A stretch of DNA of 64,000 nt from an archaeon (GCA_018692925.1 JABHLH010000002.1:38576-102575); one strand, 5' to 3'. Numbered from the stretch's first letter, positions 4,327 through 53,293 are shown. A program made the numbers and translations. Notes: generated by a model not told the origin, from the sequence alone.

Positions 4327-5003
4327 TTTACCACCAGTCCATCTTTTAATTCAATAATTCTTTCAGCTTTTTTAGCTATATAATCATCATGTGTTACGAT
4401 TATTAAAGTTTTCCCTTCTTTTTTGTGCAACTCTTGTAATAAAGCTAAAATCTGTTCTCCAGTTTTTGTATCTAAATTACCTGTTGGTTCATCAGCTAAA
4501 ATAACTTCTGGATCATTTGCTAAAGATCTTGCAATAGCAACTCTTTGTCTTTCTCCTCCACTTAACTCTGAAGGTTTATGATCTAATCTATGGTCTAAAC
4601 CAACTTTTCTTAAAAGTATTTCAGCTCTTTTTTTTCTCTCTTCAGGCTCATAACCTTGAAAGATCATTGGAACCATAACATTTTCAACAGTTGTTAAACT
4701 CGGAATCAAATTAAAAGTTTGAAAAATAAAACCAATTTTCTTTCCTCTTATTCTTGCAAGTTCACCTTCATCTAAATTTGCAATATTTTTCCCATCTAAA
4801 TAGATTTTACCTTTTGTTGGGACATCTAAACAACCAACCATATTCAAACATGTACTTTTACCACTTCCACTCTTACCAATAATAGAAACAAACTCTCTTT
4901 CTTTTATATCAATATTAATCCCTCTAATTGCTGGAACTTCAACTTCTCCTAACTTATATATTTTCCAAGCATCCTGAACTCTAATCACACTCTTCTTTGA
5001 CAT
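4323..5003 (-). CDS. ABC transporter ATP-binding protein, MacB/LolD-type
   Basis: Walker A GKSGSGKST, ABC signature LSGGERQRVAIAR and Walker B ILADEPTGNLD. Confidence 0.9.
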   Translation of the reverse strand: MSKKSVIRVQDAWKIYKLGEVEVPAIRGINIDIKEREFVSIIGKSGSGKSTCLNMVGCLDVPTKGKIYLDGKNIANLDEGELARIRGKKIGFIFQTFNLIPSLTTVENVMVPMIFQGYEPEERKKRAEILLRKVGLDHRLDHKPSELSGGERQRVAIARSLANDPEVILADEPTGNLDTKTGEQILALLQELHKKEGKTLIIVTHDDYIAKKAERIIELKDGLVVK

Positions 5004-5646: not shown

Positions 5647-6849
5647 TTATTTTTTAATTTTTCTTTCAAGCACTTTTATTCTTTTCTTCAATTCAATCAT
5701 TTTTAATTCTCTATTTTCAGATAACTTTGAAAATCTCTCTAATTGTATTGTTCTTTTTTTACTTTTTTCTTTAGCCTTATTCATTTCGGATATAGCTTCT
5801 TCTGTACCAATCCCTAATTCGTGTTTAGAACTACCTGTTCTAAGTATTGCCAATTTCAAACTAGCTAATATTCTATCTAAAGAATCTATTAAATTATTAA
5901 TTTCAAAAATCTTACTTTCTTTTATTTGAATCTCAAAATTACCTTTACTAATCTCATCAACACTTTCTGTCAAATCTTTAATTGGTTTTGAAATATATCT
6001 TGAAACAAAAAAGCCCATAAAAGAAATTAAAAAGATAATAAGTAAAAGATTCTTAATGCTTGAATATATTACTCCTTTTTTAGTTTCTCCTAATGCTTCA
6101 GCTTCATCAATTTTAACAACTAGTCCTACATCTAATACTTCAATATACTTTGTAATTGCAATAACTTCTTCTCCTCTATAATCATTAATATCATATATAG
6201 TCTTTTCAACACCTGAAACTGCTTCCGCCATTGGGAGATGAGATGCTTCAATCATTTCATTAGCTTCAAATCTTCTTTGAGTAAAAAAAACTATATCTCC
6301 ATCACTATCTTGATAAGCTAATAAACTTTCTCCAGTTTCTCCAAGTCCTGTCTGGTCTAAAATAATACTATCAAAAACACCTAGTCTTGCTTCTGTAACA
6401 ACAAATCCTTCCTTAAATGGTGTAGCAAGTAATAGTGTCTCTTCTTCAAATATTTTAGAAGTATATGCTAGAATTATTGTTTCTTCTTCCTTTAAAAAAT
6501 CATTAATATTTATGATTTCATTAATAAATGTCTCATCAGATGAAGTAATGATCATACCTTCTGAATCAACTGTATATAAAATCTCAAAATCTTCTTGTAT
6601 CTTAATTATTTCTTTTAATTCATCATTACTAAGATTTTCGTGTGTTGCTGTTATTTGAATATTTTCAACATTCTGTTTTACAAAATCTTCTACAATATCT
6701 TCCATTAATTGCGATCTTGATTCTAAATGCATATTAATTTTCTGTTCAAGAAGGTTAGATGTGTCAAAATAATTATTTGACAACATTATAAAACCTGCTA
6801 ATATTCCAACTAGGATAAAACTAAAAATAATGATTTTAGATAATTTCAT
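5647..6849 (-). CDS. Membrane sensor protein: cache-like extracytoplasmic domain plus HAMP, no output domain
   Basis: TM1, a roughly 240-aa periplasmic domain, TM2, a HAMP-like segment (ISKPIKDLTESVDEISKGNFEIQI) and a coiled-coil tail. Confidence 0.6.
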   Translation of the reverse strand: MKLSKIIIFSFILVGILAGFIMLSNNYFDTSNLLEQKINMHLESRSQLMEDIVEDFVKQNVENIQITATHENLSNDELKEIIKIQEDFEILYTVDSEGMIITSSDETFINEIININDFLKEEETIILAYTSKIFEEETLLLATPFKEGFVVTEARLGVFDSIILDQTGLGETGESLLAYQDSDGDIVFFTQRRFEANEMIEASHLPMAEAVSGVEKTIYDINDYRGEEVIAITKYIEVLDVGLVVKIDEAEALGETKKGVIYSSIKNLLLIIFLISFMGFFVSRYISKPIKDLTESVDEISKGNFEIQIKESKIFEINNLIDSLDRILASLKLAILRTGSSKHELGIGTEEAISEMNKAKEKSKKRTIQLERFSKLSENRELKMIELKKRIKVLERKIKK

Positions 6850-6869
6850 TAGTTTTCCTCTTTTTTATT

Positions 6870-7271
6870 CTATTTAACATATTTCTCAAATAAAGGGAAT
6901 AATATTGTTTCTTCAGCACTAACTCTTTTTGATACAGCCTTAATTATTTCTTCTGTTTCATTAATAAATTTTTTATAATCAGTTAAAATTATATTCTTAT
7001 CCTGATATTTATCAAAGAATTTTAAAACCACTTTAGATACTTCATTCATTTCTTCTGAAAATTTATCCCCTGCTTCTTTTGCTTTATTATTTTCACAATC
7101 TTTTAAAGCCGGATATAACATTCGATCTTCTAACTTTAAATGTTCTATTAACAATTCTTTTAAACTAGATATTTCTTCAACTATTTTTTCATTAGATTTC
7201 AAAATTTTAATTTTTTCAAAATATCTCATAATTTCTACATGTTCTTCTTTTAATTCTTTAATTAAATCCAT
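6870..7271 (-). CDS. Hemerythrin-like (HHE cation-binding) protein
   Basis: 133 aa with repeated H/E-containing helices (EEHVEIMRYFE..., EHLKLEDRMLYPAL) typical of hemerythrin domains. Confidence 0.55.
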   Translation of the reverse strand: MDLIKELKEEHVEIMRYFEKIKILKSNEKIVEEISSLKELLIEHLKLEDRMLYPALKDCENNKAKEAGDKFSEEMNEVSKVVLKFFDKYQDKNIILTDYKKFINETEEIIKAVSKRVSAEETILFPLFEKYVK

Positions 7272-8058
7272 TTTTTTTCCTCTTAATTTTTTTCTTTGAT
7301 AAAAGCGAATAAGGGTTCATTAAACCTATTTGTATTATAGCCTTATAGATTAAATAAAATGATATAATCTTAAAAAAATGACCTACAAGATTTGATAATC
7401 CGAAAACGCTTACATAAAATGTAAATGCTAACTCTGCAAATATTGTAAAGATTATTGAGCTTATTATTAAATAAAAGATAATCTTATCAAATTTCTCTTT
7501 ATATTCCCATAAAAAAACAATAGATCCAATTAAAATAATAGAAATTATATATTCACTTATAATTTTAAATTGTGTTAATCCACTATCTACAATAAATGCA
7601 TCTGGAAATATTCTTAGATAAAATATGCTTACAAAAATAAAACTTGTAATAATAAAATAAATCAAAGAAGTCAACTTTGGTTTTAATTCCCTTATTATAA
7701 AAATAGGTGCTACTAAAAAAGAGAGAGCTTGTAGATAACGTGCAGCTATCCATAACTGGGTTGGTAAATTAGCATCAAATCCTGAAAATATATTTATCCC
7801 TTGATATGCTAATAAATGAACAAAATCTATACTTGCAATAAAAACTAAACTTATTCCTAAAAATAACAAATAATCATTATCAACAAAAAACCTTGAATTT
7901 CATGCAATCATAAATATTCCTACTGCAATAACAATACTAAATATTTCTGCTACACTATGGAATAATGCATAATTTTCATAAAAACTTGTTAACCAAATAC
8001 CTACTAAAGCTAAAATAAAAATAACTATTTCTAATTTGCTAAATATTTTTTCTTTCAT
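7258..8058 (-). pseudogene. Polytopic membrane sensor-domain protein interrupted by an in-frame TGA
   Basis: The ATG at 8058 opens a frame (MKEKIFSKLEIVIFILALVGIWLTSFYENYALFHSVAEIFSIVIAVGIFMIA) that hits TGA at 7902..7900. The same frame continues (NSRFFVDNDYLLFLGISLVF...) into the 203-aa ORF 7258..7869, which has no ATG start. Confidence 0.4.
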
Positions 8059-8070
8059 TATCAGACCTCT

Positions 8071-9978
8071 TTACTTTAATATTAACCTTAATTTATATTT
8101 AAATTCTTCGGATTTTTCTTTAGTTATTATTGATCTTGCAAATAGTAGATCTATTTGAGGGATCATAATTTTCAAATCCATATTACTTTTTACTTTATTA
8201 AAATAAAATTCTCCTTTTTTCTTTCCAATTATTTCAATATAAATATCTTTTATTTCTTTTTCAATTCCTTTTCTTATAACTCTTTTTTCAATTTTTTTAT
8301 GTGTTTCTCCACTTATTAAATATAAATTATCTACAAATTCTTCCGCTTGTTCTTGGTCTATAACTTTTTCTTTCTTAATTAAATTAATATAATTAATTAA
8401 CTCCTTTAAACCTAACTTATTTTGTGTATCTAATTCATTAAATTCTCTTTTTCCAATCGGACCTAAAAAAGATTTAAAAATATCTCTTATTTCCTCTTTT
8501 TTATCTGTTTTTTTAGAAAAAAGAAGTTTAATAGGTTCTATTTCTTTTACAGCTTTTAATGGGAAAGTAAAATTAAATGTAGTTCCAATATTTTCTTTAC
8601 TATTAAACCAAATTTTCCCTTTTTGAGATTTAACAATTCCTTTTGCAATTGCTAAACCTAATCCGGTTCCTAGGCTTTCTCTATACATAGTTTGTTTAGC
8701 TTGAAAGAAAGGTTCAAAAATTCTAGATTGTTGTTCTTTATTTATACCTCTTCCTTTATCTTGAACAGAAAACAATATTTCATTACTTTGTTTTTTTACT
8801 GATACATTTATACTTGTATTCTTTTTTGAAAACTTCACAGCGTTATTTAGTAGATTCCTTAAAACTTGCATTATTCTATCTGGATCAGATTCAATAATAG
8901 GTAGTTTTTCAATTTTTGTTTCTATTTTTATTTTCTTTTCTGGCATAAATAATGATGTCTCTTTTACTACTCTCTCAATATAGGGAGTAATATCTGTTTT
9001 TACAAATCTAAATTTTAACCTTGCAGCTTCAATTCTACTTATTTCTAAAAAATCTACAATAATATTATCTAACCTTTCTGTATTTCTAGCTACAATATCT
9101 AAAGATTCTTCTTGTTTTTTGTTTAACTTACCATAATATCCACCTATTAACATTTGTAATTGTGCTCTCATTGGAGTCATAGGGCTTCTTAATTCATGGC
9201 TTGTTATTGATATAAATTCTGTCTTGGATCTTTCTAATTGAGTGTGTTCTTTCTCTCTATATTCTAATATTTCTGCCGTTCTATTCAAAGAATTAGATAA
9301 TCTTTTTAATTCATCCTTTGTACTTATTTTTATTCTATATTTATAATTATTTTTTTCTAATTCATTAACCATCTCATTTAATCTTTTTATCGGTTTTGTA
9401 ATATTTTTTGAAAATAAATATCCTATAAACATTGTAAATATTAAGATTATTATTCCTATAATAAAGTAACTTAATTCTATATTTTTAACAGATTCAAGAG
9501 CTTGATCAGAATTGATTTCTCCAACAACAAGCCAATTTAAATTATTTATTAACTCTTTTGTATCTTCGTCTTTAATGTTAAGTGATCTTCCAAAAATTTC
9601 AATAACAGCAAAAGTTTTTTCTCCTTGATAATTTAAATGTTCTAATAATTGATCTTCTTTTGTTTCAAGTGCTAAATTTACACCTTCGGTATCTACTAAT
9701 AGATTTCCTGAAGAATTTTCAATAAATCTTGATTCTGTTAACATAATTCTATCTTCGTTTACAATATATATCTCTCCTGTTTCTCCTAGAATTCTTCTTT
9801 CACTTGTAATTTCATTTATTGCTCTAATATTTGTATCTCTAACTGCTATGGCTGTTATTGAAGATTTTGAAGAAGTTACAAGTGAAGAAGCTTTAACAGC
9901 AATCATAGATGCTGAATCTGAAATGAATGAAATGATTAATGATAATTTTTCAGTTAATGCTGTAAATGATACTATCAT
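8071..9978 (-). CDS. Sensor histidine kinase (cache-like sensor, TM, HAMP, HisKA, HATPase_c, about 150-aa C-terminal extension)
   Basis: H-box ITSHELRSPMTPM, N-box LLNNAVKFS, G-boxes DKGRGI and GTGLGLAIAKGIV, a TM (YFIIGIIILIFTMFIGYLF) and HAMP. N-terminal limit is uncertain (see findings). Confidence 0.85.
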   Translation of the reverse strand: MIVSFTALTEKLSLIISFISDSASMIAVKASSLVTSSKSSITAIAVRDTNIRAINEITSERRILGETGEIYIVNEDRIMLTESRFIENSSGNLLVDTEGVNLALETKEDQLLEHLNYQGEKTFAVIEIFGRSLNIKDEDTKELINNLNWLVVGEINSDQALESVKNIELSYFIIGIIILIFTMFIGYLFSKNITKPIKRLNEMVNELEKNNYKYRIKISTKDELKRLSNSLNRTAEILEYREKEHTQLERSKTEFISITSHELRSPMTPMRAQLQMLIGGYYGKLNKKQEESLDIVARNTERLDNIIVDFLEISRIEAARLKFRFVKTDITPYIERVVKETSLFMPEKKIKIETKIEKLPIIESDPDRIMQVLRNLLNNAVKFSKKNTSINVSVKKQSNEILFSVQDKGRGINKEQQSRIFEPFFQAKQTMYRESLGTGLGLAIAKGIVKSQKGKIWFNSKENIGTTFNFTFPLKAVKEIEPIKLLFSKKTDKKEEIRDIFKSFLGPIGKREFNELDTQNKLGLKELINYINLIKKEKVIDQEQAEEFVDNLYLISGETHKKIEKRVIRKGIEKEIKDIYIEIIGKKKGEFYFNKVKSNMDLKIMIPQIDLLFARSIITKEKSEEFKYKLRLILK

Positions 9979-10998: not shown

Positions 10999-11766
10999 TT
11001 ATCTATACTCACTAAAACCTTGTTCACCATAGAATCTAGAAATAACTGTTTGTGGTATGAAATGAGGGTTACTTACACAACCTTCTAAAGAGCTTCCATC
11101 TTTATAATCTAGTTTTACATATCCATTACTATTTCCCAATATATTTTCTGGTCCTTCTTCAGGAATAATCTCTGCTTCAAATAATGTATCTGTAACCATT
11201 ACTTCTGCTTCTATTCTTCCTTCATAACTAAAATTCATAAATTCAAAAACTTTTTTTGTTTCTCCAACAATATAATCTATTCCACTTTCTTCTGAAGGTG
11301 TTAATACAGCTTCATGACCTTCTGCAATATTTGTATAACTTCCAATGTACCAACTTTCATCAAGATACATTTCTAATCCATAAATAATTCCCTCTTCTTC
11401 TCTAATAAATACTGGGCTTACATGATTAAGATAAATACTACAAGTTGAACAAAAATACATTTGTTTTGAGATATCTCCATCTGGCTGTAAGAATTTTAAT
11501 TCTTCTTCTACTTCACCTTCTTTAAATCTTCCTAAATGGTAAAGCATAGAATTTGTTTTTGGACCTGATTTTTCAAGGCCTTCTAATAAAACTTCTTCAC
11601 TATCAGCTTCTCTTCCATCTAATAATTCTTCACAACTTGTTTCTGGCCATAGTTCTTCACCCCAATCTTCACTATCCCAAAAATCTCCAGTATCATAAAT
11701 TGTATCAATTGGCTCTGTACAAGCATTTAAAATTCCAACTAAACTTAACATATTTACTAATTTCAT
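10999..11766 (-). CDS. Acidic secreted lipoprotein, hypothetical
   Basis: Signal peptide ending in the lipobox LNAC (MKLVNMLSLVGILNACTEP). 255 aa, very acidic. Confidence 0.55.
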   Translation of the reverse strand: MKLVNMLSLVGILNACTEPIDTIYDTGDFWDSEDWGEELWPETSCEELLDGREADSEEVLLEGLEKSGPKTNSMLYHLGRFKEGEVEEELKFLQPDGDISKQMYFCSTCSIYLNHVSPVFIREEEGIIYGLEMYLDESWYIGSYTNIAEGHEAVLTPSEESGIDYIVGETKKVFEFMNFSYEGRIEAEVMVTDTLFEAEIIPEEGPENILGNSNGYVKLDYKDGSSLEGCVSNPHFIPQTVISRFYGEQGFSEYR

Positions 11767-16709: not shown

Positions 16710-16920
16710 TTTTTACAACTTCCAAAATCTCTTCTTCAGAGACTTTCTCTTTATTGAAAGCCTCTAAAGTTCTTCCGTATTTACTTTCTAAACTAGACTT
16801 CATACAAAAAGTTTTTCTATCAAAAAACTCAGCCTTTTTTCCTTTATTCCATTGTGTCACAGGTCTATGATATCCTACAACTCTACTATATACTTCACAT
16901 TGTTTTCCACATTTACTCAT
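16696..16920 (-). CDS. NrdD C-terminal glycyl-radical domain as a separate small ORF
   Basis: MSKCGKQCEVYSRVVGYHRPVTQWNKGKK carries the RVxGY glycyl-radical motif. The ATG at 16920 is preceded by the Shine-Dalgarno sequence AAAGGAGGTGA. Overlaps the nrdD stop by 8 nt. Confidence 0.65.
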   Translation of the reverse strand: MSKCGKQCEVYSRVVGYHRPVTQWNKGKKAEFFDRKTFCMKSSLESKYGRTLEAFNKEKVSEEEILEVVKNVEF

Positions 16921-18892
16921 TCTGCTCACCTCCTTTTGTGCTGACTACAGCTTCATATGGGCACTCATGATGTTCTCCTGCAATGTATCCATGCTCTGGA
17001 CAAATACTAAATGTTGGAGTTATTGTATAGTATGGTATTCTATATGTGTGTGCAATTCTTTTTACTAATTTTTTACACGCTTCAATACTATCTATTTTTT
17101 CTCCAATAAAACAGTGGAACACAGTTCCTCCTGTATACTTACATTGCAATTCTTCTTGGCTATCTAAAGCTTCAAAAATATCATCTGTTGCATTCACTGG
17201 TAACTGTGAACTATTTGTATAATATGGTTCTTCTGTTCCAGCTGTAATTATATTTGGATATTTCATCTTATCAATTCTTGCCAATCTATAACTAGTTCCT
17301 TCTCCAGGTGTAGCTTCTAAATTATAGATGTGTCCTGAATCTTCTTGGTATTGTTTTAATCTTGATCTCATAAAATCTAAAATCTCAATTGCAAAATCTC
17401 TTCCTTCATCATCAAGCATATCTTTCTTCAAGAAATTCAAACAACATTCATTCATTCCAATTAATCCAATTGTTGAAAAATGATGGTCTAAATTTTCTAG
17501 ATATCTTTTTGTGTAAGGCAACAATCCATATTCCATATATCTTGTAACAACCTTTCTTTTAATTTCTAAAGAATTTTGAGCCATATCCATTAAGATTTTT
17601 AATCTTCTAAAGAATTCGTCTCTATCTTTACTAACAAATCCTAATCTTGGTAGATTAATTGTAGCAACTCCAATAGAACCTGTATTTTCTCCAGAACCAA
17701 ACAATCCTCCAGTTTTACTTCTAAGTTCTCTTACATCAAGTTGTAATCTACAACACATACTTCTAACATCTGTTGGTTTCAACTCACTGTTAACAAAATT
17801 TTGGAAATAAGGGATACCATATTTTGAAGTCATTTCAAATAATATATTTGCATTATCACTATCCCAATCAAAATCTTTTGTAATGTTATAAGTTGGTATA
17901 GGGAAAGTAAATATTCTTCCATCAGCGTCTCCTTCCATCATACATTCCATGAAAGCTTTATTGATCATATCCATTTCCTTTTGATAATCTTTATACTTGT
18001 TTTCTTGTCTCTTTCCACCAATGATTACTTTTTCTTCTGCCAAATCTTCAGGTACTGTCCAATCAAATGTAAAATTTATGAAAGGTGTTTGTGTTCCCCA
18101 TCTGCTTGGTGTAGCAATATTAAATAGTAATCTTTGCATTTGTTGTTTAACTTCTTTGTAAGTCATATTATCTACTCTTACATATGGAGCTAGATAAGTA
18201 TCTACAGAGGACAAAGCTTGAGCTCCTGCCCATTCATTTTGCATTGTTCCTAAGAAATTAACCATTTGTCCAATTACAGTATCAAAATGCTTTGGTTGTT
18301 TTGTTTGTAACTTTCCATAAACTCCACCAAAACCTTCTTCTAACAATTGTCTAAGTGACCAACCTGCACAGTAACCTGAGAACATACTCAAATCATGTAA
18401 GTGGAAATCCCCATTTGAATGTGCATTTTTAATTTCTGCAGGATAAATATTATTCAACCAATAATTAGCAGTAATTTTTCCAGAGATGTACAAAATCAAA
18501 CCTCCAAGAGAAAATCCTACATTACTATTTTCATTTACTCTCCAATCAATTTGATCAAGGTATTCTTTCATTGTACCTTCAACATCTAATAATACTTTTT
18601 TACTCTCTCTTTCTCTCCTTCTATTCTCTCTATAAATGATAAAAGATTTTGCTGCTGCATGATCATTGTCTTTTATTAGAACTTCTTCTATTGAATCTTG
18701 AATTTCTTCTACTGAAGGAATTTGATAAGGATTTTTTTCTTCAACCATTCTAGCAACTTTTTGTGCTAGTTCTTGTGCTTTATCTTTACTACCAATTCCA
18801 GTTGCTTTCATTGCACTGAATATTGCTTCTGCTATTCTCTCTTTATTGAAAAGAATAATACTTCCATCTCTTTTTTTTACATGTGTTACCAT
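16913..18892 (-). CDS. nrdD: Anaerobic ribonucleoside-triphosphate reductase (class III) catalytic polypeptide, lacking the glycyl-radical motif
   Basis: 659 aa with an N-terminal ATP-cone and the class III core. Ends ...CPEHGYIAGEHHECPYEAVVSTKGGEQNE before the RVxGY motif. Confidence 0.9.
   Translation of the reverse strand: MVTHVKKRDGSIILFNKERIAEAIFSAMKATGIGSKDKAQELAQKVARMVEEKNPYQIPSVEEIQDSIEEVLIKDNDHAAAKSFIIYRENRRRERESKKVLLDVEGTMKEYLDQIDWRVNENSNVGFSLGGLILYISGKITANYWLNNIYPAEIKNAHSNGDFHLHDLSMFSGYCAGWSLRQLLEEGFGGVYGKLQTKQPKHFDTVIGQMVNFLGTMQNEWAGAQALSSVDTYLAPYVRVDNMTYKEVKQQMQRLLFNIATPSRWGTQTPFINFTFDWTVPEDLAEEKVIIGGKRQENKYKDYQKEMDMINKAFMECMMEGDADGRIFTFPIPTYNITKDFDWDSDNANILFEMTSKYGIPYFQNFVNSELKPTDVRSMCCRLQLDVRELRSKTGGLFGSGENTGSIGVATINLPRLGFVSKDRDEFFRRLKILMDMAQNSLEIKRKVVTRYMEYGLLPYTKRYLENLDHHFSTIGLIGMNECCLNFLKKDMLDDEGRDFAIEILDFMRSRLKQYQEDSGHIYNLEATPGEGTSYRLARIDKMKYPNIITAGTEEPYYTNSSQLPVNATDDIFEALDSQEELQCKYTGGTVFHCFIGEKIDSIEACKKLVKRIAHTYRIPYYTITPTFSICPEHGYIAGEHHECPYEAVVSTKGGEQNE
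16926..16933 (-). promoter_or_regulatory. Shine-Dalgarno sequence (GGAGGTGA) for the glycyl-radical small ORF
   Basis: Minus strand reads aaaaGGAGGTGAgcagaATG. A comparable AGAGGTGA precedes the GTG start of the class II RNR gene. Confidence 0.5.
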
Positions 18893-21199: not shown

Positions 21200-21931
21200 T
21201 TAAAAAACTTTTGTTTCATTTATAATTTGATATCTTTCTTTTAATTTTGTATTTGGTGGACAATAACCTTTTATTTTATAGATTTGCCATTTGGTAAGAT
21301 GTTTAGAACTTTTAAAACCAATTTCTTTTATGAATCTTTCAATATCTTTTTTTCTTTGAATCATTATTGAATGCACTGCATTTTTATCTTTTTTTCCTTT
21401 GTAAGAAGGTTTTTGATAAATATTATATCCTAATTCTTCAAGCATAAATCTCACTCCTTTTATTATTTTTTTGGAAGTCATTCCTAATTTTATTCTAGGA
21501 CGATTATGTTTTCTATTTTCTATTTTCACAGAATAATTTTTATTGAAATATATTGAACCATCAGTATCAAAAATACCTCTTAAAAAAAACTTCCATAATC
21601 TTTTATTTTTTAGGATACAATCAGGAATTTCATGATCTAATTTAACTCCTGATTTTATACCTAATTGCTCAAAAAAAGAAACAATTTTTTCATTAAAAAC
21701 ATATATCCCATATGTTCCATTTTTTTCATAATTTTTTGCAATAATTTCTTTTCCTAAAATGGGTTTAAAGATATTTGAATTATATATAGGTAAGACATGG
21801 TTATCATAATATTCTCTCTCTTCAGTTATATCTCCATTTATTGCATATTCCTGATATTTTGTAGTTTTACTAATACAACCATCACCTAAATGAATTCCAA
21901 TTATTTCGGCTAATTCTTCAGATATTTCCAT
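21200..21931 (-). CDS. LAGLIDADG homing endonuclease, double-motif single-chain type
   Basis: Motif 1 LAEIIGIHLGDGCIS and motif 2 WKFFLRGIFDTDGSIYF. 243 aa, free-standing, directly upstream of the intron-containing tRNA. Confidence 0.8.
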   Translation of the reverse strand: MEISEELAEIIGIHLGDGCISKTTKYQEYAINGDITEEREYYDNHVLPIYNSNIFKPILGKEIIAKNYEKNGTYGIYVFNEKIVSFFEQLGIKSGVKLDHEIPDCILKNKRLWKFFLRGIFDTDGSIYFNKNYSVKIENRKHNRPRIKLGMTSKKIIKGVRFMLEELGYNIYQKPSYKGKKDKNAVHSIMIQRKKDIERFIKEIGFKSSKHLTKWQIYKIKGYCPPNTKLKERYQIINETKVF

Positions 21932-24241: not shown

Positions 24242-24790
24242 ATGAAAAAAATATTAATATTATTCTTACTTATTTTCTTAGTTGGATGTACTACAGAAGT
24301 ACTAGAAGAAAATGAAGAAATAGGATCAGGCACAGGTTTTGGTGCTGCGGAGAACGAAAAAATGGATTATACTTACAAGGTAAAAGTTGAAACCAATAAA
24401 GGAGATTTTGTTATTGGTTTATATGAAGACACACCTTTATCTACAAATAATTTTCTTAAACTTGTAGAAGAAGGATTTTATAATAGCTTAACATTCCACA
24501 GATACGAACCTAATTTTGTAATTCAAGGTGGAGATCCTAGTGGAGATGGGACTGGTGGAAGCTCTGATACTGTAAATTTAGAAGTCATTGGTAAATCTCA
24601 TTCAAGAGGGACTGTAGGTATGGCAAGATCCAATGATCCAAATAGTGCAAGTTCTCAATTCTTTGTAAACTTAGCTGATAATACTTTCTTAGATGATGGT
24701 TACACTGTTTTTGGAGATGTACTTGAAGGTATGGATGTTGTTGATGAATTAAGAGCTGGGGACACAATGAATAAAGTGTCAATGCTTTAA
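24242..24790 (+). CDS. Cyclophilin-type peptidyl-prolyl cis-trans isomerase, lipoprotein
   Basis: Lipobox FLVGCTTE. Cyclophilin motifs FHRYEPNFVIQGGDP and GTVGMAR...SQFFVN. Confidence 0.9.
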   Translation: MKKILILFLLIFLVGCTTEVLEENEEIGSGTGFGAAENEKMDYTYKVKVETNKGDFVIGLYEDTPLSTNNFLKLVEEGFYNSLTFHRYEPNFVIQGGDPSGDGTGGSSDTVNLEVIGKSHSRGTVGMARSNDPNSASSQFFVNLADNTFLDDGYTVFGDVLEGMDVVDELRAGDTMNKVSML

Positions 24791-25493: not shown

Positions 25494-27269
25494 ATGGTTA
25501 AAAGAATAGCTGTAGTTGAAAAAGAAAAATGTAATCCTCTGTCCTGTGGAGACTATCTCTGTATGAGGATGTGTCCTCTAAACAGAGAAGGGCAGGAAGC
25601 TATAACCAAAGGTCCAGATGGTAAAGCTCAGATTAATGAAGAGCTTTGTACTGGTGTTTGTAGCATTTGTGTAAACATATGTCCTTTTGGAGCTATTCAC
25701 ATGGTTAAGCTTCCAGATAATTTAACTCAAAAACCTATTCACAGATATGGAAAAGATTCTTTCATATTATACAACATACCTTTACCAACTTCAGGAAAAG
25801 TTTTAGGTATTTTAGGAAGAAATGGTATTGGGAAAAGTACAGCATTAAAAATATTATCAAATTCATTAACCCCCAATCTTGGAGATCCAGAAAATAAAGA
25901 TCCAAAAATTGATGAACTTATTAAGATGTACAGAGGATCTGAAATTCAAATTTTCTTAAAAAAATTAAAAGAAAAGAAAGTAAAAATTGCTTACAAACCT
26001 CAGTCTGTACATTTAATTCCTACACAAATTGAAGGAACTGTTAAGGAACTTTTAGATAAATCAAATGAAAATAACAAACTTGATGAAGTCTCAGAACAAT
26101 TAAATTTAAAAGAATTATATGATCGAGAAGTTTCCGCTCTTTCTGGTGGAGAGTTACAGAGGCTAGCAATTGCTGCAACTTTGCTAAGGGATGCAAACTT
26201 TTACTTCTTTGATGAGCCAGCATCTTTCTTAGATATTACTTACAGAATAAAGGTTGCAAAAATAATTAGATCTTTAGCAAAGGAAGGTGTCGCAGTTATG
26301 GTTGTTGAACATGACTTGGCAACTTTAGATTATATTTCTGATCAATTACAAATTTTATATGGTAATGCTGCAGTTTATGGTATTGTTTCTCAAATTAAAT
26401 CTGTTAGAAGGGGAATTAATGAATATTTAGATGGTTATCTTCCTGACGACAATGTTCGGTTTAGAGACTACAAAATTAAATTTAACAAAGGTATTGAAAG
26501 ATATGTAAATAGGCCTGTATTATACTCTTGGGGAGACTTAGAAAAAGAGTTTGAAACTTTCAAATTAAAAATCAGTGCTGGTGAGTTAAGAAAAGGTGAA
26601 ATTTTAACTATTACTGGTGGGAACGGTTTAGGAAAAACAACTTTCTTAAAAATGCTTGCTGGATTAATCAAACCTACAAAGGGAAAAATCGATTCTAGTA
26701 TAAAGATTGCTTACAAACCTCAAGATATTAAACCTGAAGCAGGGACTGTAAATGAATGGTTACATAAATTTGCAAAAAACAAAGAGAGTGGTTGGTTTGA
26801 AAAAAATATCTTAGATAAATTAAACTTAAGAAAAATAATTAATTCAAACATTGCAGATTTATCTGGTGGTGAATTACAAAAAGTTTTTGTTGCTATTACT
26901 TTATCTTTAGATGCTGATGTTTATGCTTTTGACGAGCCTTCAGCTTTTATTGATGTTGAGGATAGAATAAATGTAGCAGAAGTAATTAGAGATTTTATGA
27001 ACAAACAAGACACTTGTGCAATTGTTGTAGATCACGATATTCAATTTGTAGATTACATTGGTGATTCTATGTTAGTTTTCGAGGGTGAACCTGGTAAAGA
27101 AGGTCATGTTAAAGGTCCTTTAACTAAAGAAGAAGGTATGAATGAAGTATTAAAAATGCTTGACATAACTTTCAGAATTGATGCTGAATTTGGTAGACCA
27201 AGAATAAATCAGTTAGGTTCTCAGTTAGATAAAAAACAAAAAAAAGAAGGAAAATATTATTACACTTAA
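25494..27269 (+). CDS. ABCE1 (RNase L inhibitor homologue), the archaeal ribosome-recycling factor
   Basis: N-terminal Fe-S domain (CNPLSCGDYLCMRMCP...CTGVCSICVNICP) plus two ABC cassettes (GRNGIGKST, LSGGELQR; GGNGLGKTT). Confidence 0.95.
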   Translation: MVKRIAVVEKEKCNPLSCGDYLCMRMCPLNREGQEAITKGPDGKAQINEELCTGVCSICVNICPFGAIHMVKLPDNLTQKPIHRYGKDSFILYNIPLPTSGKVLGILGRNGIGKSTALKILSNSLTPNLGDPENKDPKIDELIKMYRGSEIQIFLKKLKEKKVKIAYKPQSVHLIPTQIEGTVKELLDKSNENNKLDEVSEQLNLKELYDREVSALSGGELQRLAIAATLLRDANFYFFDEPASFLDITYRIKVAKIIRSLAKEGVAVMVVEHDLATLDYISDQLQILYGNAAVYGIVSQIKSVRRGINEYLDGYLPDDNVRFRDYKIKFNKGIERYVNRPVLYSWGDLEKEFETFKLKISAGELRKGEILTITGGNGLGKTTFLKMLAGLIKPTKGKIDSSIKIAYKPQDIKPEAGTVNEWLHKFAKNKESGWFEKNILDKLNLRKIINSNIADLSGGELQKVFVAITLSLDADVYAFDEPSAFIDVEDRINVAEVIRDFMNKQDTCAIVVDHDIQFVDYIGDSMLVFEGEPGKEGHVKGPLTKEEGMNEVLKMLDITFRIDAEFGRPRINQLGSQLDKKQKKEGKYYYT

Positions 27270-27670
27270 CCAAGATTCCATTTCTCAATTTCATCAAGAT
27301 CTTTTTGTGCTTCTTTTCTCATATCTTCAAGAACATTTTCTTTGATATATTTTTCAACATCTTCAACAGTCTCAAATCTAAGAACATGGGTATCTCCTTC
27401 ACCATTATAAACACAAGTATCTAATGCATGTCCTCTACAAATATCAGGTCTTTTATCATAAACAGTACACTTACCAGTATCGTCTAGCTTTGCACATGGA
27501 GTTTTAAATTCTACTACCCAATCATCTTCATTATCTTTGTAAACTGAAACATTTTTATGGGAAACCATCCATCTGATTTCATCCCAATCTTCTACTGTAT
27601 CAGGTTCGTCTATTTCTACTGTTACATCTTTACAACATGATGAGTCTGGACATTGTTCACAATCTATCAT
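27266..27670 (-). CDS. YkgJ/UPF0153-like Cys-rich metal-binding protein
   Basis: CEQCPDSSCC N-terminal cluster plus further Cys residues. 134 aa. Confidence 0.5.
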   Translation of the reverse strand: MIDCEQCPDSSCCKDVTVEIDEPDTVEDWDEIRWMVSHKNVSVYKDNEDDWVVEFKTPCAKLDDTGKCTVYDKRPDICRGHALDTCVYNGEGDTHVLRFETVEDVEKYIKENVLEDMRKEAQKDLDEIEKWNLG

Positions 27671-27691: not shown

Positions 27692-28453
27692 TCATTTAAA
27701 TAATTTTCTCATACTTATCTTATAATTTCTTACAAGAACAAACAAAGAAACAAGAATCATTACTAAAGACATCCATTGTCCTACACTCAAACCCCAATAT
27801 AAAATATCTTCTCTATAGAAATCCAAAACCAATCTACCTATTCCCATTAACAAAACTCCACACCAAAATATGAATCCTTCTTTAAACTTTATAGACGATA
27901 AACTCCACAATATTCCTCCAATTGCAAATCTTTTCAAAGCACTATAAATCACATAAGGATGTCTACATAAATTATCTCCAAAGTCTACACACCAAGAAAC
28001 ATCTGTAACTCTTCCAACTAATTCTCCATTTGTAAAATTTGCTAACCTTCCTAAACCTAAAGCAAGTATTCCTGGAACTGTTAAAATGTCTGCAACTTTC
28101 AAAAAACTTATTTTCTTATTTTTACAAAACCACCATGCTCCGACGATAATTCCTACTAAACCTCCATGGTAAGCCATACCTCCTTCCCAAAGATAAAATA
28201 TTTTCCAAGGTTCTAATAAGTAATAATCAAACTCCCAGAAAACTACATGGAACAATCTGGAGCCAATAATTACACCTAACATTAAATAAAAAACAAGGTC
28301 ATAAACATCATCTTTTTTCAAAGCTATTTCTCGACGATAATGCATCAACCAAACTATACTCAAAATAAATCCAATTACATAAACTAAACCATAATATCTT
28401 ATTTCTAATCCACCCAAGTTTAACAACACAGGATTCAAATTATGTACCCACAT
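27692..28453 (-). CDS. lgt: Prolipoprotein diacylglyceryl transferase (Lgt), bacterial type
   Basis: Three signature blocks align with E. coli Lgt: NPVLLNLGGLEIRYYGLVYVIGF, LWEGGMAYHGGLVGII and LGLGRLANFTNGELVGR. Confidence 0.85.
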   Translation of the reverse strand: MWVHNLNPVLLNLGGLEIRYYGLVYVIGFILSIVWLMHYRREIALKKDDVYDLVFYLMLGVIIGSRLFHVVFWEFDYYLLEPWKIFYLWEGGMAYHGGLVGIIVGAWWFCKNKKISFLKVADILTVPGILALGLGRLANFTNGELVGRVTDVSWCVDFGDNLCRHPYVIYSALKRFAIGGILWSLSSIKFKEGFIFWCGVLLMGIGRLVLDFYREDILYWGLSVGQWMSLVMILVSLFVLVRNYKISMRKLFK

Positions 28454-28575
28454 ATAGATTCAAATCTTTTTAAAATTTATAAGGTTTCCCTCGAGAAAAC
28501 ATAAAGTTTATATACTAATATAGACTATATAACATTACTAGTATTTATAACTAGATTATATGAGGTGAAAAAAAA

Positions 28576-29031
28576 ATGGGAAAAGTTCTTGTAAAGTGTG
28601 GGATTAAAAGAGAATCTGGCTTTTTATACTTCTTAAATAAGAAGGGTGATGTGGCTAGAGTAAAGATGAAAAGACCTGGAATGAAGGGATCATTCAAACA
28701 GCAAGTGGTAGTTAAGTGTGGAGTTTCTAGAGAACCTGGTATGCTATATTACATCGACAAAGCAGGAAATGTTGCATGTACAAAAATGGCTAGAGGCGGA
28801 AAGAAGAAAAAGAAAAAAGCTAAAAAGAAAAAAGTGAAGAAAAAAGCTGTTAAGAAAAAGGTTAAGAAAAAAGCTAAGAAAAAAAAGGTGAAGAAAAAAG
28901 CTAAAAAGAAAGCAGTAAAGAAAAAAGTGAAAAAGAAAGCTGCAAAGAAGAAAGTTAAGAAAAAAGCTGCAAAGAAAAAAGCTAAGAAAAAAGCACCTAA
29001 AAAGAAAGCTAAAAAGAAAAAGAGAAGATAA
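28576..29031 (+). CDS. Tandem-repeat small-domain protein with a poly-lysine (histone-H1-like) tail
   Basis: Two roughly 50-aa repeats (VLVKCGIKRESGFLYFLNKKGDVARVKM and VVVKCGVSREPGMLYYIDKAGNVACTKM) are followed by about 80 aa of KKKVKKKA-type repeats. Confidence 0.5.
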   Translation: MGKVLVKCGIKRESGFLYFLNKKGDVARVKMKRPGMKGSFKQQVVVKCGVSREPGMLYYIDKAGNVACTKMARGGKKKKKKAKKKKVKKKAVKKKVKKKAKKKKVKKKAKKKAVKKKVKKKAAKKKVKKKAAKKKAKKKAPKKKAKKKKRR

Positions 29032-41389: not shown

Positions 41390-41599
41390 TTATTTTGCTT
41401 TTGGTGCGTGTTTTTTGATACTCAAAGGAATCACACCTTTTTCAAGCTCTCTTTTTGCAATAATAATTGGATTATATTTTATATTTTCCAATTCCTTTTT
41501 TGATAACTTTACCAAAACAGGTGCACCCATTGCAAGTTGCAAAGCTCTAGCTCCAATAATTCGTGCTCTTTCATATTTAGTCATACTATCTATGTTCAT
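41390..41599 (-). CDS. rpoK: DNA-directed RNA polymerase subunit K (Rpo6)
   Basis: TKYERARIIGARALQLAMGAPVLV. Confidence 0.8.
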   Translation of the reverse strand: MNIDSMTKYERARIIGARALQLAMGAPVLVKLSKKELENIKYNPIIIAKRELEKGVIPLSIKKHAPKAK

Positions 41600-42369
41600 T
41601 TTTTGAAATGCCCTCTTATATCCTTGGTTGTTTTAAATGCAAGTTCAACAGCTTTTTCAATTTCATCAGCCAGCAAAGGTTCATCTTTTCCTTTTTGCAT
41701 TGCACAGATTTTATCATCTTCTGTGAATACTACTGTGATTCTTGAATTAGAAGCAGACTCTTCTTCAACACTTGGATCAACTAATAGTTCATTACCAACT
41801 TTCCAAACAGTACAACTGATTGGTAATTTTTGTAAAGGTAATGGTGTTTTAGTTTTTGTTGAATAATCTACTTTACCATTTTCTATACTTGGGAAAACTG
41901 CATCTCTTATTGCTGCCATAGCTGCAATAGTACAAGCATCAAATAAATTTCCTGCTGAATTTATTGGATATATATCAATAAAGACTAACCAAACTTTTCC
42001 ACTTGCTTTATCATACAATCTTTTGAAGTCAATAGCGCCACATTCTCTAATTCCTCTATCTGTAACTCTTGACAATTCGATTGCATTTATATTTGGTGGA
42101 CCAGATTCATATTTTGCAGATGATAAAGGTGTTAATTCTACATTTACCATAATACTTCCTTGATCTGGTTTATCTGGATAAGGTTCACCTAAGTCTAATT
42201 TAACTCCAGCAATTACTTCTGTCTCTCCAATTTTTACTCTTGCAGAACCTTCAGCTGATTTTTTAGAAATTCCATATTCAATTGATAAATTTCTATACTC
42301 ATCGAACTTTCTTCCATCCATTCTTTTTCCAAGTTTACTTAAAGATTGTACATATTCTTCTGTTATCAT
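41596..42369 (-). CDS. rrp42: Exosome complex component Rrp42
   Basis: RNase PH-like inactive subunit. 4-nt overlaps with both neighbours. Confidence 0.85.
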   Translation of the reverse strand: MITEEYVQSLSKLGKRMDGRKFDEYRNLSIEYGISKKSAEGSARVKIGETEVIAGVKLDLGEPYPDKPDQGSIMVNVELTPLSSAKYESGPPNINAIELSRVTDRGIRECGAIDFKRLYDKASGKVWLVFIDIYPINSAGNLFDACTIAAMAAIRDAVFPSIENGKVDYSTKTKTPLPLQKLPISCTVWKVGNELLVDPSVEEESASNSRITVVFTEDDKICAMQKGKDEPLLADEIEKAVELAFKTTKDIRGHFKK

Positions 42370-43073
42370 TTTTTTGCCTCCGTATATTTAGCTTTCAAGG
42401 CATTTTTTTGTACCTCAAGAATTTGGTCACATCCTTTGATAGCAAAGTCAACACATTTTTTCAAATCTTCTTTACTAATTTCTCCATCAAGTTGTAACAA
42501 AGTAACTTCTCCAGTTCTAGGAATAATAGCCATTGGAATGTCTACTGCTCCACCTTCAAAGTCTTCTTCTTGCTTATCTAAATCTAAAACAACTTTATCT
42601 CCAATTAGTCCAGCTGAAATTGCACAAACTAAGTCTTTCATTTCAAAACCTGCATCTGCTAATGCTAATGAAGCTGCACAAATTGCTGCACATCTTGTTC
42701 CTGCATCAGTTTGAATTAATTCCACATGAACATCTACTACGCTCTTTGGGAAATCTTGCAAATCTAAAACAGGTAATAAAGATTTTTCCATAACCATACT
42801 AATTTCTTTACTTCTTCTACTTGTTCCTGGTCTTACTCTATCTCCAGCTCCTGAAAAAGCCATCATATTATAATGACATCTTAATACTCCAGATTTTGGA
42901 TTTTGTAAAAACTTTGGAAACAAATCTTTAGGTCCATAAACTGCTGCAATAGCGATTGTTTTTCCAATTGTAAAACTTGCAGATCCTACAGCATTTTTAA
43001 CAACACCTACTTCAGCACTCATTGGTCTCATTTCTTCAAACTTTCTACCGTCATATCTTTTTTCGTATTTCAT
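42366..43073 (-). CDS. rrp41: Exosome complex exonuclease Rrp41
   Basis: RNase PH domain (RYDGRKFEEMRP...GSASF). Confidence 0.9.
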   Translation of the reverse strand: MKYEKRYDGRKFEEMRPMSAEVGVVKNAVGSASFTIGKTIAIAAVYGPKDLFPKFLQNPKSGVLRCHYNMMAFSGAGDRVRPGTSRRSKEISMVMEKSLLPVLDLQDFPKSVVDVHVELIQTDAGTRCAAICAASLALADAGFEMKDLVCAISAGLIGDKVVLDLDKQEEDFEGGAVDIPMAIIPRTGEVTLLQLDGEISKEDLKKCVDFAIKGCDQILEVQKNALKAKYTEAKK

Positions 43074-44523: not shown

Positions 44524-45228
44524 TTATCCCTTCAATTTTCTCCTATCCATTTTTTTATACTTCTTATCACTTAGTCCAATGTATGCTCCATCTAATCTTT
44601 TCAAATCAAATTCTTTTCCAAGAACTTTTTTCAATGCTTTAACAGACAATTTAATTGCTTCATCCATTGTAATATCTTCTCTATAATCTTTTCTTAAAAC
44701 ATTTTTTACACTATCTGCTCCTTCTCCAACTGCTGTTGCTCTATACTCAAAGAAAATTCCTGTTGGTTCTGTTACAAACAATCTTGGTTTTTCATCAACA
44801 CCAGCAAATAAGATAGAAACTCCAAAAGGTCTTGCTCCACCATATTGTGTAAATGATTGTTTTATGTCTGATAGTTCTTTAACTAACATTGATGTTTCAA
44901 TTTGTGTATTGTATGTTACTTGATTTTGTTGTGCAATTACTTGCGCTCTTCTAATTAAAATTCTTCCATCCATTACATATCCTGTTGCTGTAGCAGCTAT
45001 GTGTCCATCTACTTGAAATATTTTTTCGATAGATTCTGCAACAACTAAATTATCTGCAACTCTTTTGTCTGTAATTAAGATTACTCCATCGCAACATACA
45101 ACCCCTATTGCGGTTGAACCTTGTCTTACTGCTTCTTTAGCATATTCTACTTGTAATAATCTCCCATCAGGACTAAACATTGTGCTTGCCCTGTCATATC
45201 CCATCATTTGATGTGTTCCTTCTTGCAT
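44524..45228 (-). CDS. psmA: Proteasome subunit alpha
   Basis: YDRASTMFSPDGRLLQVEYA alpha-type signature. Confidence 0.9.
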   Translation of the reverse strand: MQEGTHQMMGYDRASTMFSPDGRLLQVEYAKEAVRQGSTAIGVVCCDGVILITDKRVADNLVVAESIEKIFQVDGHIAATATGYVMDGRILIRRAQVIAQQNQVTYNTQIETSMLVKELSDIKQSFTQYGGARPFGVSILFAGVDEKPRLFVTEPTGIFFEYRATAVGEGADSVKNVLRKDYREDITMDEAIKLSVKALKKVLGKEFDLKRLDGAYIGLSDKKYKKMDRRKLKG

Positions 45229-49092: not shown

Positions 49093-49923
49093 ATGGATAA
49101 AAATCAAAGAAAGAAATTACTTCTTATTATTGCAATCCTTGGAATTGTAGCTTTAATGACTTCTGTTTACTTATTAAAAAATCATTATTATCCTGATCTA
49201 GGTTCTTTTTGCGATTTCGACGAATCTATTTCTTGTTCTTATGTAAACTCTAGTTCCTTTTCAGAAATATTAAATGTTCCAGCTGCTTTACTTGGAATAT
49301 TTTGGTCTTGCTTTTTAACTTTTTTTGCAATTAAATCAATAAAAAAAAGAACTTACTTAGTTCCATTATTTTTGTGGTCTTTATTCGGAGTACTATCTTC
49401 AATCTTTTTTATAATCGCTGAGTTTATTTTGAAAGCAATTTGTCCTCTGTGTACTGTGGTTCACATAATCTCTTTCATTGTAATTATTTTATCTATTTTA
49501 TTACTAAACTCTCAAAAAACTAATATTAGAATTTTAGATTTAAAACAATTAAAAACTATTTTGACAATTATAATCATAATCAATCTTTTACCTTTCTTAT
49601 TTTTCAACACTGTTCAAGCTGAACAAAATTATGATGATTTTGCTCAATGTTTGACAGATTCTGGTTTAGTAATTTATTCTTCTTCTCAATGTGGTGCTTG
49701 TGCTTACCAAGAAGAATTATTTGGAGAATCTTTTGGATTAATTAATCTTGTAGAATGTAATCCTTCAGCTGAAGATTATAATCAAGAGCTTTGTGATGCA
49801 AGATTTATTTCTGCTACGCCTACTTGGATATTAGAAATTGAAGGTGAAGAGTTTGAAAGAGAGATTGGTTACCAAAATTTTGAACAATTATCTTCTTGGA
49901 CTTCTTGTGTGCTAAATAGTTAA
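49093..49923 (+). CDS. VKOR-family membrane protein fused to a thioredoxin-like domain
   Basis: Loop cysteines (CDFDESISC), membrane CPLC and a C-terminal soluble domain with CGAC. Confidence 0.65.
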   Translation: MDKNQRKKLLLIIAILGIVALMTSVYLLKNHYYPDLGSFCDFDESISCSYVNSSSFSEILNVPAALLGIFWSCFLTFFAIKSIKKRTYLVPLFLWSLFGVLSSIFFIIAEFILKAICPLCTVVHIISFIVIILSILLLNSQKTNIRILDLKQLKTILTIIIIINLLPFLFFNTVQAEQNYDDFAQCLTDSGLVIYSSSQCGACAYQEELFGESFGLINLVECNPSAEDYNQELCDARFISATPTWILEIEGEEFEREIGYQNFEQLSSWTSCVLNS

Positions 49924-50513: not shown

Positions 50514-50978
50514 ATGAAAAAAGAAGAAAATCCAAAAGAAGCTCAAAATGAAGAGGAAACTCAAAAAGAAGAGCAAAGTCTTTTAGAACAACTACAGAGA
50601 TTACAAGCAGAGTTCATAAATTACAGAACTAGAGTTGAGAAAGAAAAAGTTCAGATAAAAGAACAAACAAAAGAAATCACTATCTTAAGATTTTTAGACA
50701 TAAAAGACAACTTCGATAGAGCACCAAAACTTGACGAAGGTATGGAATTAATTTACAAACAATTTCAAAAAATATTCAAAGATGAATCTGTTCAAGAGAT
50801 TGAAAATCTAGTTTTTGATCCTCAATTTCATGAGGCGATTGCAACAGATCCAAATACAAAGAAAGACAAAATAGTTGAAGTAATCCAAAAAGGTTACAAA
50901 CGAAATGAAATTCTAATGAGACCTTCAAAGGTTGTAGTTGGAAGTAATGATAATATAGGAGAAAAGAAAAATGAGTAA
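50514..50978 (+). CDS. grpE: Nucleotide exchange factor GrpE
   Basis: Coiled-coil N-terminus and GrpE C-terminal block. Stop overlaps the dnaK start. Confidence 0.85.
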
Positions 50979-52812: not shown

Positions 52813-52957
52813 CTCTTTTTTTATTTTATTATTAAAATGGGATTAGAAGATTTAACAGGATATGGGACAATTGATTCCTTTGTATATTCTCCTAGGTCGA
52901 ATAATCTTTATCGTCAATCTAATGAACCTTATCAAAGAATAAATTCAGATATGCTTT

Positions 52958-53293
52958 ATGATTTTTCTAGCTCTGGATATGGTGGAGGTTCAGTTTATGG
53001 ATAAATCTTACAAAAATATTGGAGATTTACTTAGAGAAGATTCAATAAAAGAAACTCCAAGAAGAATGATGGATTATCAACATGCTGCTACAAAAGTATT
53101 AGATTCCTATTTTCAAGAAAGAGATTTTGAAAAAATTCAAGTAAAACAAGAATATAAAAGACATGAAGACTTAAGTCAATATGCTCATGGATTGAATGAG
53201 AGAATGAAAGAGTTTCAAGATTTTCACACTAGAAGGTATTTCGAATATTTTGCTAAGCAAGCATTAGAGGGATTACTAAATGTACCAAAATAA
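52958..53293 (+). CDS. Hypothetical protein inserted between dnaK and dnaJ
   Basis: 111-aa ORF with no recognisable motifs. Confidence 0.35.
   Translation: MIFLALDMVEVQFMDKSYKNIGDLLREDSIKETPRRMMDYQHAATKVLDSYFQERDFEKIQVKQEYKRHEDLSQYAHGLNERMKEFQDFHTRRYFEYFAKQALEGLLNVPK

Follow-up and report, generated by a model that had tools for sequence, protein, structure and literature searches.

The closest described relative of the protein considered here, the prolipoprotein diacylglyceryl transferase Lgt of Escherichia coli, absolutely requires residues Y26, H103, R143, N146, G154 and R239, while G99, G142, G145, Y235 and R246 are further residues essential for viability (PMC13251419); E202 and Y235 line the pocket for the glycerol backbone of the lipid, and Y26 and R143 contact the lipid ester oxygens (PMC4728403). 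In archaea, AliA and AliB (arCOG02177/02178) of Haloferax volcanii are the only characterised enzymes of lipoprotein lipidation, and two arginines of AliA have been compared with R143 and R239 of Lgt (PMC12462473). Archaea are stated to have no Lgt in papers up to 2026 (PMC6098224; PMC12462473; PMC13251419). We have analysed an lgt homologue, an open reading frame (ORF) at positions 27692–28453 of a 64,000-nucleotide stretch of archaeal DNA (GCA_018692925.1, JABHLH010000002.1:38576-102575; hereafter the window), in which an original prediction had seen a horizontally acquired bacterial lipoprotein-acylation step with matching lipobox substrates nearby. We consider it likely that this ORF encodes a functional Lgt-family transferase, with an activity predicted from its sequence, and that the gene is native to, and long resident in, a Woesearchaeota (DPANN) archaeon.

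Since sequence models, fold and required residues agree, the ORF is a true, full-length and intact member of the Lgt family. It matches PF01790 (LGT) with an E-value of 2.1e-61 and 207.8 bits against a cut-off of 24.9, residues 8–241 aligning with model positions 1–239 of 240, and scores 170.4 bits against a cut-off of 118.9 with TIGR00544, the NCBIfam lgt equivalog. A sequence search paired it with E. coli Lgt (PDB 5azb) at E 3e-30, and this alignment reproduces all three motif pairs from which a block-for-block correspondence had originally been proposed. An AlphaFold2 model made from a 60-sequence alignment (pLDDT 94, pTM 0.88) has 5azb as its sole significant Foldseek match in the PDB (E 9e-15, TM-score 0.78/0.70). 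All six absolutely required residues are present, as Y21, H96, R136, N139, G147 and R207 in the order given above. Moreover, Y26, R73, H103, D129, R143, N146, E151 and G154 (E. coli numbering) are invariant in 44 of 44 archaeal-clade sequences, and R239 and R246 are found in 43, the remaining one being gapped there. The HGGL motif (H103-GGL in E. coli) is present, and the E. coli signature motif G142-RLGNFINGELWG-154 (GRLxNFxNGELxG) appears as GLGRLANFTNGELVG, with a single substitution, G145 to Ala. When longer Lgt homologues were checked for fusions with other pathway enzymes none was found, the sole fusion seen being that of a complete Lgt domain with Cu-oxidase_4 (laccase-type, PF02578) in a 528-residue metagenomic protein, P0232.

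The gene belongs to an archaeal chromosome. The archaeal surroundings on which the original prediction had relied are indeed there: genes for the exosome, the proteasome alpha subunit, aIF5B and aIF2-gamma were found in the window, which also carries ABCE1/RLI (Table 1). ABCE1 is, to our knowledge, restricted to archaea and eukaryotes. A scan of species-representative genomes returned 21 loci, 20 of them from Woesearchaeota/Nanoarchaeota-type (DPANN) metagenome-assembled genomes (MAGs) with Lgt proteins 37–63% identical to that of the window, and in 12 of the 21 an ABCE1 homologue (43–72% identity) lies within the locus around lgt. ABCE1 and lgt likewise stand one to two genes apart on a contig of 841 kb (L026; L numbers denote fetched loci) and in the sister locus L032, so that Lgt–ABCE1 linkage extends over 14 related loci in all, which come from different species. 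In the assembly collection 63 blocks index an Lgt protein identical to that of the window; the contigs with this protein that were read, 24 in number, belong to independent NCBI, ENA, JGI and Logan assemblies, among them the MAGs GCA_018673755.1 and GCA_018659445.1; in the four displayed loci with the identical protein the neighbours of lgt are the same. The G+C content (GC) of the window is uniformly about 29%, and lgt is no outlier either in GC (30.7% versus 29.1 ± 2.9% for the window) or in third-position GC3 (22% versus 15.9 ± 4.6%), both values lying within the spread. Further archaeal Lgt clades have comparable company: the mid-distance representative P0132 stands beside ribosomal proteins L21e, L15e, L31e and S19e and Rpb4, P0135 beside aIF2-gamma and S6e, and the clade-B gene discussed below near Sec61-beta and NAC.

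That the contig might be bacterial or chimeric, a possibility raised together with the original prediction, was tested on these data. Bacterial contamination, or a chimeric or mis-binned contig, might be invoked because Lgt is otherwise a hallmark of bacteria and because one homologous record (L006) is titled 'bacterium'. Considering, though, that this protein recurs on numerous independent contigs within a conserved archaeal neighbourhood, and that L006 is itself among the loci with Lgt–ABCE1 linkage, we conclude that the contig is archaeal and not chimeric; gene order and composition rule out a chimeric or contaminant contig, and we attach almost no credence to an artefact of this kind. The loci L006, L009–L013 and L015 carry record titles of 'bacterium' or 'uncultured Methanosarcinales archaeon', and their Lgt–ABCE1 order, GC of 33–42% and position in the Lgt tree group them with the Woesearchaeota/Nanoarchaeota MAGs; these taxonomy labels are probably wrong.

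In DPANN archaea lgt is present lineage-wide, and the Woesearchaeota proteins fall into at least two deep clades, here termed A (including the window Lgt) and B (L017, L019–L023). Among the best 120 matches to the window Lgt (49–87% identity) the named organisms are all Woesearchaeota, Nanoarchaeota or 'archaeon', except for one 'bacterium', a label that we judge to be wrong; in the best 120 matches of a second search, from the Lgt of L019 (38–40% identical to that of the window), all named organisms are Woesearchaeota/Nanoarchaeota, and some of these matches lie on contigs of 784 kb and 909 kb. When 1.84 billion cluster representatives were searched exhaustively with HMMER, 14,428 relatives came up at E≤1e-3, 321 of them still at E≤1e-30. 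As regards the bacterial donor and monophyly, a neighbour-joining tree built from 190 sequences was poorly resolved, and gene-context look-ups of the representatives P0172, P0189 and P0161 gave no assignment. A recent horizontal insertion is ruled out, there being no compositional anomaly and the neighbourhood being conserved between species with 48–87% identical Lgt. The gene is under purifying selection, with a dN/dS of 0.13 at a dS of 0.56 between the window lgt and its 87%-identical L032 orthologue (in the same comparison the neighbouring ribonucleotide reductase gene gives 0.13 and the CxxCxxCC gene 0.12). Since it is widespread in at least two deep clades and selected in this manner, we regard lgt as an old, lineage-wide gene; if bacterial in origin, its transfer was old and lineage-wide as well. 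What survives of the proposed horizontal acquisition is a bacterial-type Lgt in a true archaeal genome, and what falls is any recent insertion.

Predicted lipobox substrates are encoded near lgt and are conserved across species. Three bacterial-style lipoboxes had been pointed out in the window and all three strings are present, MKKILILFLLIFLVGC of a cyclophilin (24242, plus strand), MRNQLLLLGLLSSGC (…LLSSG-C) of a Cys-rich protein (20142, minus strand) and LNAC at 11766; the first two pass the lipobox rule, and the third fails it. The best candidate substrate is the cyclophilin, whose N-terminus MKKILILFLLIFLVG-C passes both the PROSITE PS51257-type and the G+LPP rules. Signal peptide and lipobox are conserved in two orthologues. 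That of L032 keeps MKKIIILFLLIFLVAC (MKKIIILFLLIFLVA-C); beyond the Cys its acidic linker is wholly different, and only with the catalytic domain does the alignment come back into register. That of L015, with 37% identity, has the lipobox …LIAAC. To judge from its sequence, this is the classical layout of a lipoprotein, and we find it more persuasive than enrichment statistics. Membrane-tethered lipoprotein foldases of Gram-positive bacteria, such as the streptococcal cyclophilin SlrA and PrsA, offer a parallel. In the NCBI MAG annotations (L001/L002:13664-14092) the cyclophilin is called as 142 residues from an internal Met, without signal peptide and lipobox, while the ENA gene call (L003/L004:13664-14212, equal to window 24242–24790) has 182 residues and keeps both; lipoprotein censuses built on the truncated calls would therefore miss this candidate.

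The Cys-rich protein is likewise conserved, its L032 orthologue (53% identity) keeping …SGC-SDY and adding AVAGC upstream; it matched no significant Pfam family (one weak sub-threshold match to Kringle) and no NCBIfam family. The 255-residue acidic protein is a weak candidate, and homology between the two acidic lipobox proteins of the window was looked for and not found. The lipobox rule is passed by two window ORFs and, across 23 loci, by 13 unique ORFs out of 467, versus 4.3 expected (Poisson P ~6e-4). At the +1 position Cys is the most enriched residue, at 9.5 times background versus at most 5.6 times for any other.

Drawing mostly on E. coli Lgt, we suggest the following mechanism, of which the catalytic activity, the lipid donor and the removal of the signal peptide are inferred. 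Secreted precursors with a signal peptide and lipobox, with the cyclophilin and the Cys-rich protein as candidates, would cross the membrane; a glycerophospholipid whose head group is glycerol would be bound in the central cavity of Lgt by Arg136 and Arg207, the counterparts of E. coli R143 and R239, and the HGGL motif (His96) would position the lipobox. The lipobox Cys would then attack the phosphate-bearing carbon of the glycerol backbone, yielding a thioether-linked lipid anchor with release of glycerol phosphate, so that the cell would, like Gram-positive bacteria, tether folding catalysts and other exoproteins to the outside of its single membrane.

Several observations weigh against a functional Lgt in this host. 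Two of the residues without which E. coli is not viable, G145 and Y235, are replaced (Ala138 and Met203), G99, G142 and R246 being retained, and E. coli Y235F, Y235L and Y235S mutants fail to complement (PMC4728403). The lipobox enrichment is moderate, with P 0.075 when the most enriched hydrophobic residue is taken as baseline. The lipid used by Lgt, sn-1,2-diacyl phosphatidylglycerol, is normally absent from the membranes of archaea. Further, a phmmer search (E<10) of all stop-to-stop ORFs with approximate sequences of E. coli and Bacillus subtilis LspA did not find LspA in the 64-kb window or in L001–L025, seven later loci lying outside the scan; PF01252 and K03101 are also absent from 54 supplementary files of a Woesearchaeota pangenome study. 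The LspA negatives cover a small part of any one genome, the window being ~64 kb of a host genome that we take to be ~1 Mb. Among the ~36 of 72 window ORFs scanned with Pfam there was no PF01252, and no lipoprotein-processing or lipid-synthesis family was seen in these ORFs with Pfam/NCBIfam; an Lnt family was likewise not seen among them, without a search aimed at Lnt. A Lit homologue was not found in the window, and NCBIfam gave no match for the window's uncharacterised membrane proteins. As to the bacterial acylation step of the original prediction, Lgt and the nearby lipobox proteins stand, and the data do not reach as far as a complete bacterial pathway, no LspA having been found in the 64 kb and L001–L025. 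In its essentials the original prediction holds.

The loss of Tyr235 and the failure to find LspA could also be read as signs of an Lgt-fold enzyme with another role in archaea (e.g. with a non-protein acceptor), or of a decaying relic. A related clade in an archaeal context (that of P0135, with aIF2-gamma and S6e nearby) has Phe at the position of His103; at L029:3843-6789 its Lgt gene overlaps the end of a gene for a Wzx-like polysaccharide flippase, itself preceded by a PAP2 phosphatase gene on the one strand, and this apparent operon may have a different lipid-linked function. H103 is, however, itself variable among bacterial Lgts (PMC13251419). Decay is opposed by the dN/dS of 0.13 and by the conservation of catalytic residues over 37–87% identity, and the conserved lipobox substrates favour the classical acceptor. 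Since only G99 and R246 are singled out as highly conserved among the viability-essential residues (PMC13251419), this suggests that G145 and Y235 vary among bacterial Lgts, and we therefore still file the window protein as a member of the family. The catalytic His and Tyr residues, to whose possible loss the original prediction had drawn attention, are retained at His103 and Tyr26, with Met in place of Tyr235; as the latter change is clade-wide, within a clade under purifying selection, we take it for variation, not for decay. Altogether a different role or a relic appears improbable to us.

If Lgt does act as a lipid transferase in these cells, its variant residues bear on the donor lipid. 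In clade A, G145 is Ala in 40 of 41 sequences, and most sampled members have Ser or Ala for E202 and Met, Leu or Glu for Y235 (Ser and Met in the window Lgt); E243 is Asp, including in the window Lgt, the head domain is 23 residues shorter than in E. coli Lgt, and a pair of cysteines within it, Cys155/Cys163, is invariant (41/41). Considering that two of the substituted residues, E202 and Y235, line the glycerol-backbone pocket in E. coli, this correlated signature could mean that clade A has adapted to archaeal ether lipids and uses archaetidylglycerol as the donor of an sn-2,3-dialkylglyceryl (archaeol-type) group. Neither AliA nor AliB is present in some archaeal genomes for which many lipoproteins are predicted (2024 AliA/AliB preprint), and Haloferax lipoproteins, according to work cited in PMC13251419, carry diphytanylglyceryl on Cys+1. 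Against such retuning, E202, Y235 and E243 are canonical in clade B, as is G145 apart from Ala in one of six, and hence the clade-A substitutions do not simply track the archaeal host; on our reading of PMC13251419, G145 and Y235 are presumably variable among bacteria too, and the nearest bacterial relatives of clade A are unlabelled, so that we do not claim the signature as archaea-specific. We offer only as a tentative and rather doubtful proposal that the Woesearchaeota Lgt constitutes an AliA-independent lipidation route, such as the AliA/AliB authors had suspected, in which the clade-A pocket has been remodelled for sn-glycerol-1-phosphate ether lipids and the head bears a likely disulfide. 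The window also encodes (49093–49923, plus strand) a protein with a VKOR domain (PF07884, E 5e-20) and a C-terminal thioredoxin-like region, which suggests an extracytoplasmic disulfide-forming system; such a system fits the Cys-rich secreted protein and the invariant Cys155/Cys163 of the Lgt head.

Alternatively, the chemistry may be unchanged from that in bacteria, DPANN cells holding ester-linked phosphatidylglycerol, whether taken up from bacteria that serve as hosts or synthesised by means of acquired fatty-acid genes. An ester-linked acyl chain of the diacylglyceryl group is what the enzyme Lit transfers to the free amino group of the cysteine. One Woesearchaeota locus with a clade-B Lgt (L021, the same as L027) encodes a full-length Lit (PF07314, E 8e-26) 2.4 kb from lgt, at L027:6448-7158 (plus strand; identical to L021:13112-13852), directly downstream of a thioredoxin-like protein with the lipobox MKNVVVLFIMVSLLFIIGC (L027:5934-6440) and on a contig that also carries Sec61-beta, NAC and SPP. 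Additionally, the ester-oxygen contacts Y26 and R143 are invariant, and bacterial fatty-acid synthesis genes, a bacterial glycerol-3-phosphate dehydrogenase, as well as possible bacterial hosts, have been reported for Woesearchaeota (Castelle et al., 2021; PMC8204110). This Lit is nevertheless a singleton, with nearest homologues of ~30% identity in Clostridiales and no counterpart in any other fetched locus, which rules it out as a general feature of Woesearchaeota; the annotated window ORFs (the ~36 of 72 mentioned above) include no lipid-synthesis gene, most Woesearchaeota are inferred to be unable to make membrane lipids (Huang et al., 2021), and the known DPANN hosts are archaea. We regard bacterial chemistry on a bacterial-type lipid as a real possibility, short of an even chance. 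For Woesearchaeota in general, and not specifically for the clade of the window, we lean slightly towards bacterial-type ester-linked phosphatidylglycerol as the donor.

Table 1. Positions of lgt, its candidate substrates and archaeal marker genes in the window
Feature	Position	Strand	Remarks
lgt homologue, prolipoprotein diacylglyceryl transferase	27692..28453	−	253 aa, ATG start, seven transmembrane helices, short head domain
Cyclophilin-type peptidyl-prolyl isomerase, signal peptide and lipobox LVG-C16	24242..24790	+	PF00160, E 1.6e-43, residues 47–177
212-aa acidic Cys-rich secreted protein, lipobox LSSG-C15	19504..20142	−	Passes PROSITE-type rule; candidate substrate
255-aa acidic protein, lipobox-like N-terminus MKLVNMLSLVGILNAC	10999..11766	−	Asn at −2 fails both lipobox rules
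ABCE1/RLI	25494..27269	+	ABC_tran (two) and Fer4_RLI; convergent with the lgt operon
CxxCxxCC protein, putative Zn/Fe-binding	27266..27670	−	PF03692, E 1.5e-7; 21 bp downstream of lgt
Divergent intergenic region	28454..28575		TATA-like TTATAAAT at 28482–28475, minus strand
Exosome Rrp41/42-type RNase PH	41596–43073		Pfam scan
Proteasome alpha	44524–45228		Pfam scan
aIF5B	55211–57004		Pfam scan
aIF2-gamma	58528–59763		Pfam scan

The CxxCxxCC gene, on the same strand, is probably co-transcribed with lgt and comes after it in L005–L007, L026 and L032 too. In the intergenic region upstream of lgt the TTATAAAT element, read by eye in a genome of 29% GC, is centred ~25 nt before the ATG and offers a weak fit to an archaeal promoter that would give a leaderless or near-leaderless lgt mRNA. 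Divergent from lgt, a gene at 28576–29031 (plus strand) encodes a 151-residue protein without a Pfam match, in which two similar N-terminal repeats (…VVKCG(I/V)…E(S/P)G(F/M)LY(F/Y)…KGDVA/AGNVA…) are followed by a poly-Lys/Ala tail of ~70 residues; it is 73–77% identical in five related loci (L005–L007, L018 and L024).

Elsewhere in the window and its relatives, NrdD of L032 (19421–20762) contains an intein with a LAGLIDADG domain and comes to 1086 residues, whereas the window NrdD (16913–18892, 659 residues) is intein-free; the window has a free-standing LAGLIDADG ORF (21200–21931, 243 residues), annotated in the identical loci L001–L003 and also present in L026, and the L032 gene table lists none. 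A bacterial-style HAMP-HisKA-HATPase histidine kinase, a HAMP-domain membrane protein and a MASE3 sensor domain are encoded on the minus strand (5647–9978 and 7258–7869), adjoined by a MacB/FtsX-type ABC exporter (552–5003) and a secreted protein with CARDB and NPCBM_assoc domains. At 50514–54481 (plus strand) there is a bacterial-type GrpE, DnaK and DnaJ cluster, judged from N-terminal sequences only; systems of this type have been described as bacterial imports in DPANN (PMC8204110), and the cluster would suit a genome in which old acquisitions from bacteria are numerous.

The statement that archaea have no Lgt is thus too broad, there being hundreds of homologues of which the organism-labelled ones are DPANN bar one presumed mislabel. 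The 2026 Lgt survey covered RefSeq genomes only (PMC13251419), and by our own explanation it missed the archaeal proteins because RefSeq holds few DPANN MAGs. In NCBI and JGI these DPANN proteins already bear the name Lgt, and the supplement of the Woesearchaeota pangenome study lists an lgt orthogroup without comment; our literature search found no paper tying Lgt or LspA to DPANN, and the gap is accordingly one of literature and not of annotation. A large archaeal lineage carries a conserved, selected and canonical Lgt together with predicted lipobox proteins, which makes this Lgt a candidate for an alternative lipidation pathway in archaeal genomes that have lipoproteins and lack both AliA and AliB. 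With a single cloned gene it can be tested whether a bacterial lipid-transfer enzyme works on ether lipids or whether DPANN cells hold ester phospholipids, perhaps from bacterial hosts, and either answer on the donor would inform us about DPANN membranes and host range. Were an Lgt indeed to act on ether lipids, the bacterial/archaeal 'lipid divide' would be spanned by a single enzyme family. Further, an archaeal Lgt weakens the assumption that antibiotics targeted at Lgt hit bacteria only.

Finally, compared with known systems, the window Lgt shares with E. coli Lgt (5AZB/5AZC) its Pfam/TIGRFAM family, the seven-helix fold (TM 0.78) and residues Y26, H103, R143, N146, E151, G154, R239 and R246; it differs in being only 29% identical in the structural alignment, in G145A, E202S, Y235M and E243D, in the head shortened by 23 residues and bearing a Cys pair, and in its archaeal host. 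With the clade-B Lgts of Woesearchaeota it has in common family, host phylum and an N-terminal MWVHNLNP motif, but these are 37–43% identical to it and lack the Cys pair. In its short head domain near the membrane, and in likely substrates that are exoproteins tethered to a single membrane, it resembles the small-head Lgt of monoderms and Helicobacter (PMC13251419), yet it keeps His where Firmicutes and Actinobacteria have Tyr or Trp at 103. The same job, lipidation of a lipobox Cys in an archaeon, is proposed for it as for AliA/AliB of Haloferax volcanii; in contrast to the window protein, which is plainly PF01790, AliA reaches only 29% HHpred probability against Lgt (PMC12462473), and the window Lgt is not detectably related to AliA/AliB. 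The window Lgt adds to a known enzyme family a new member from an archaeon, one that shows variant features.

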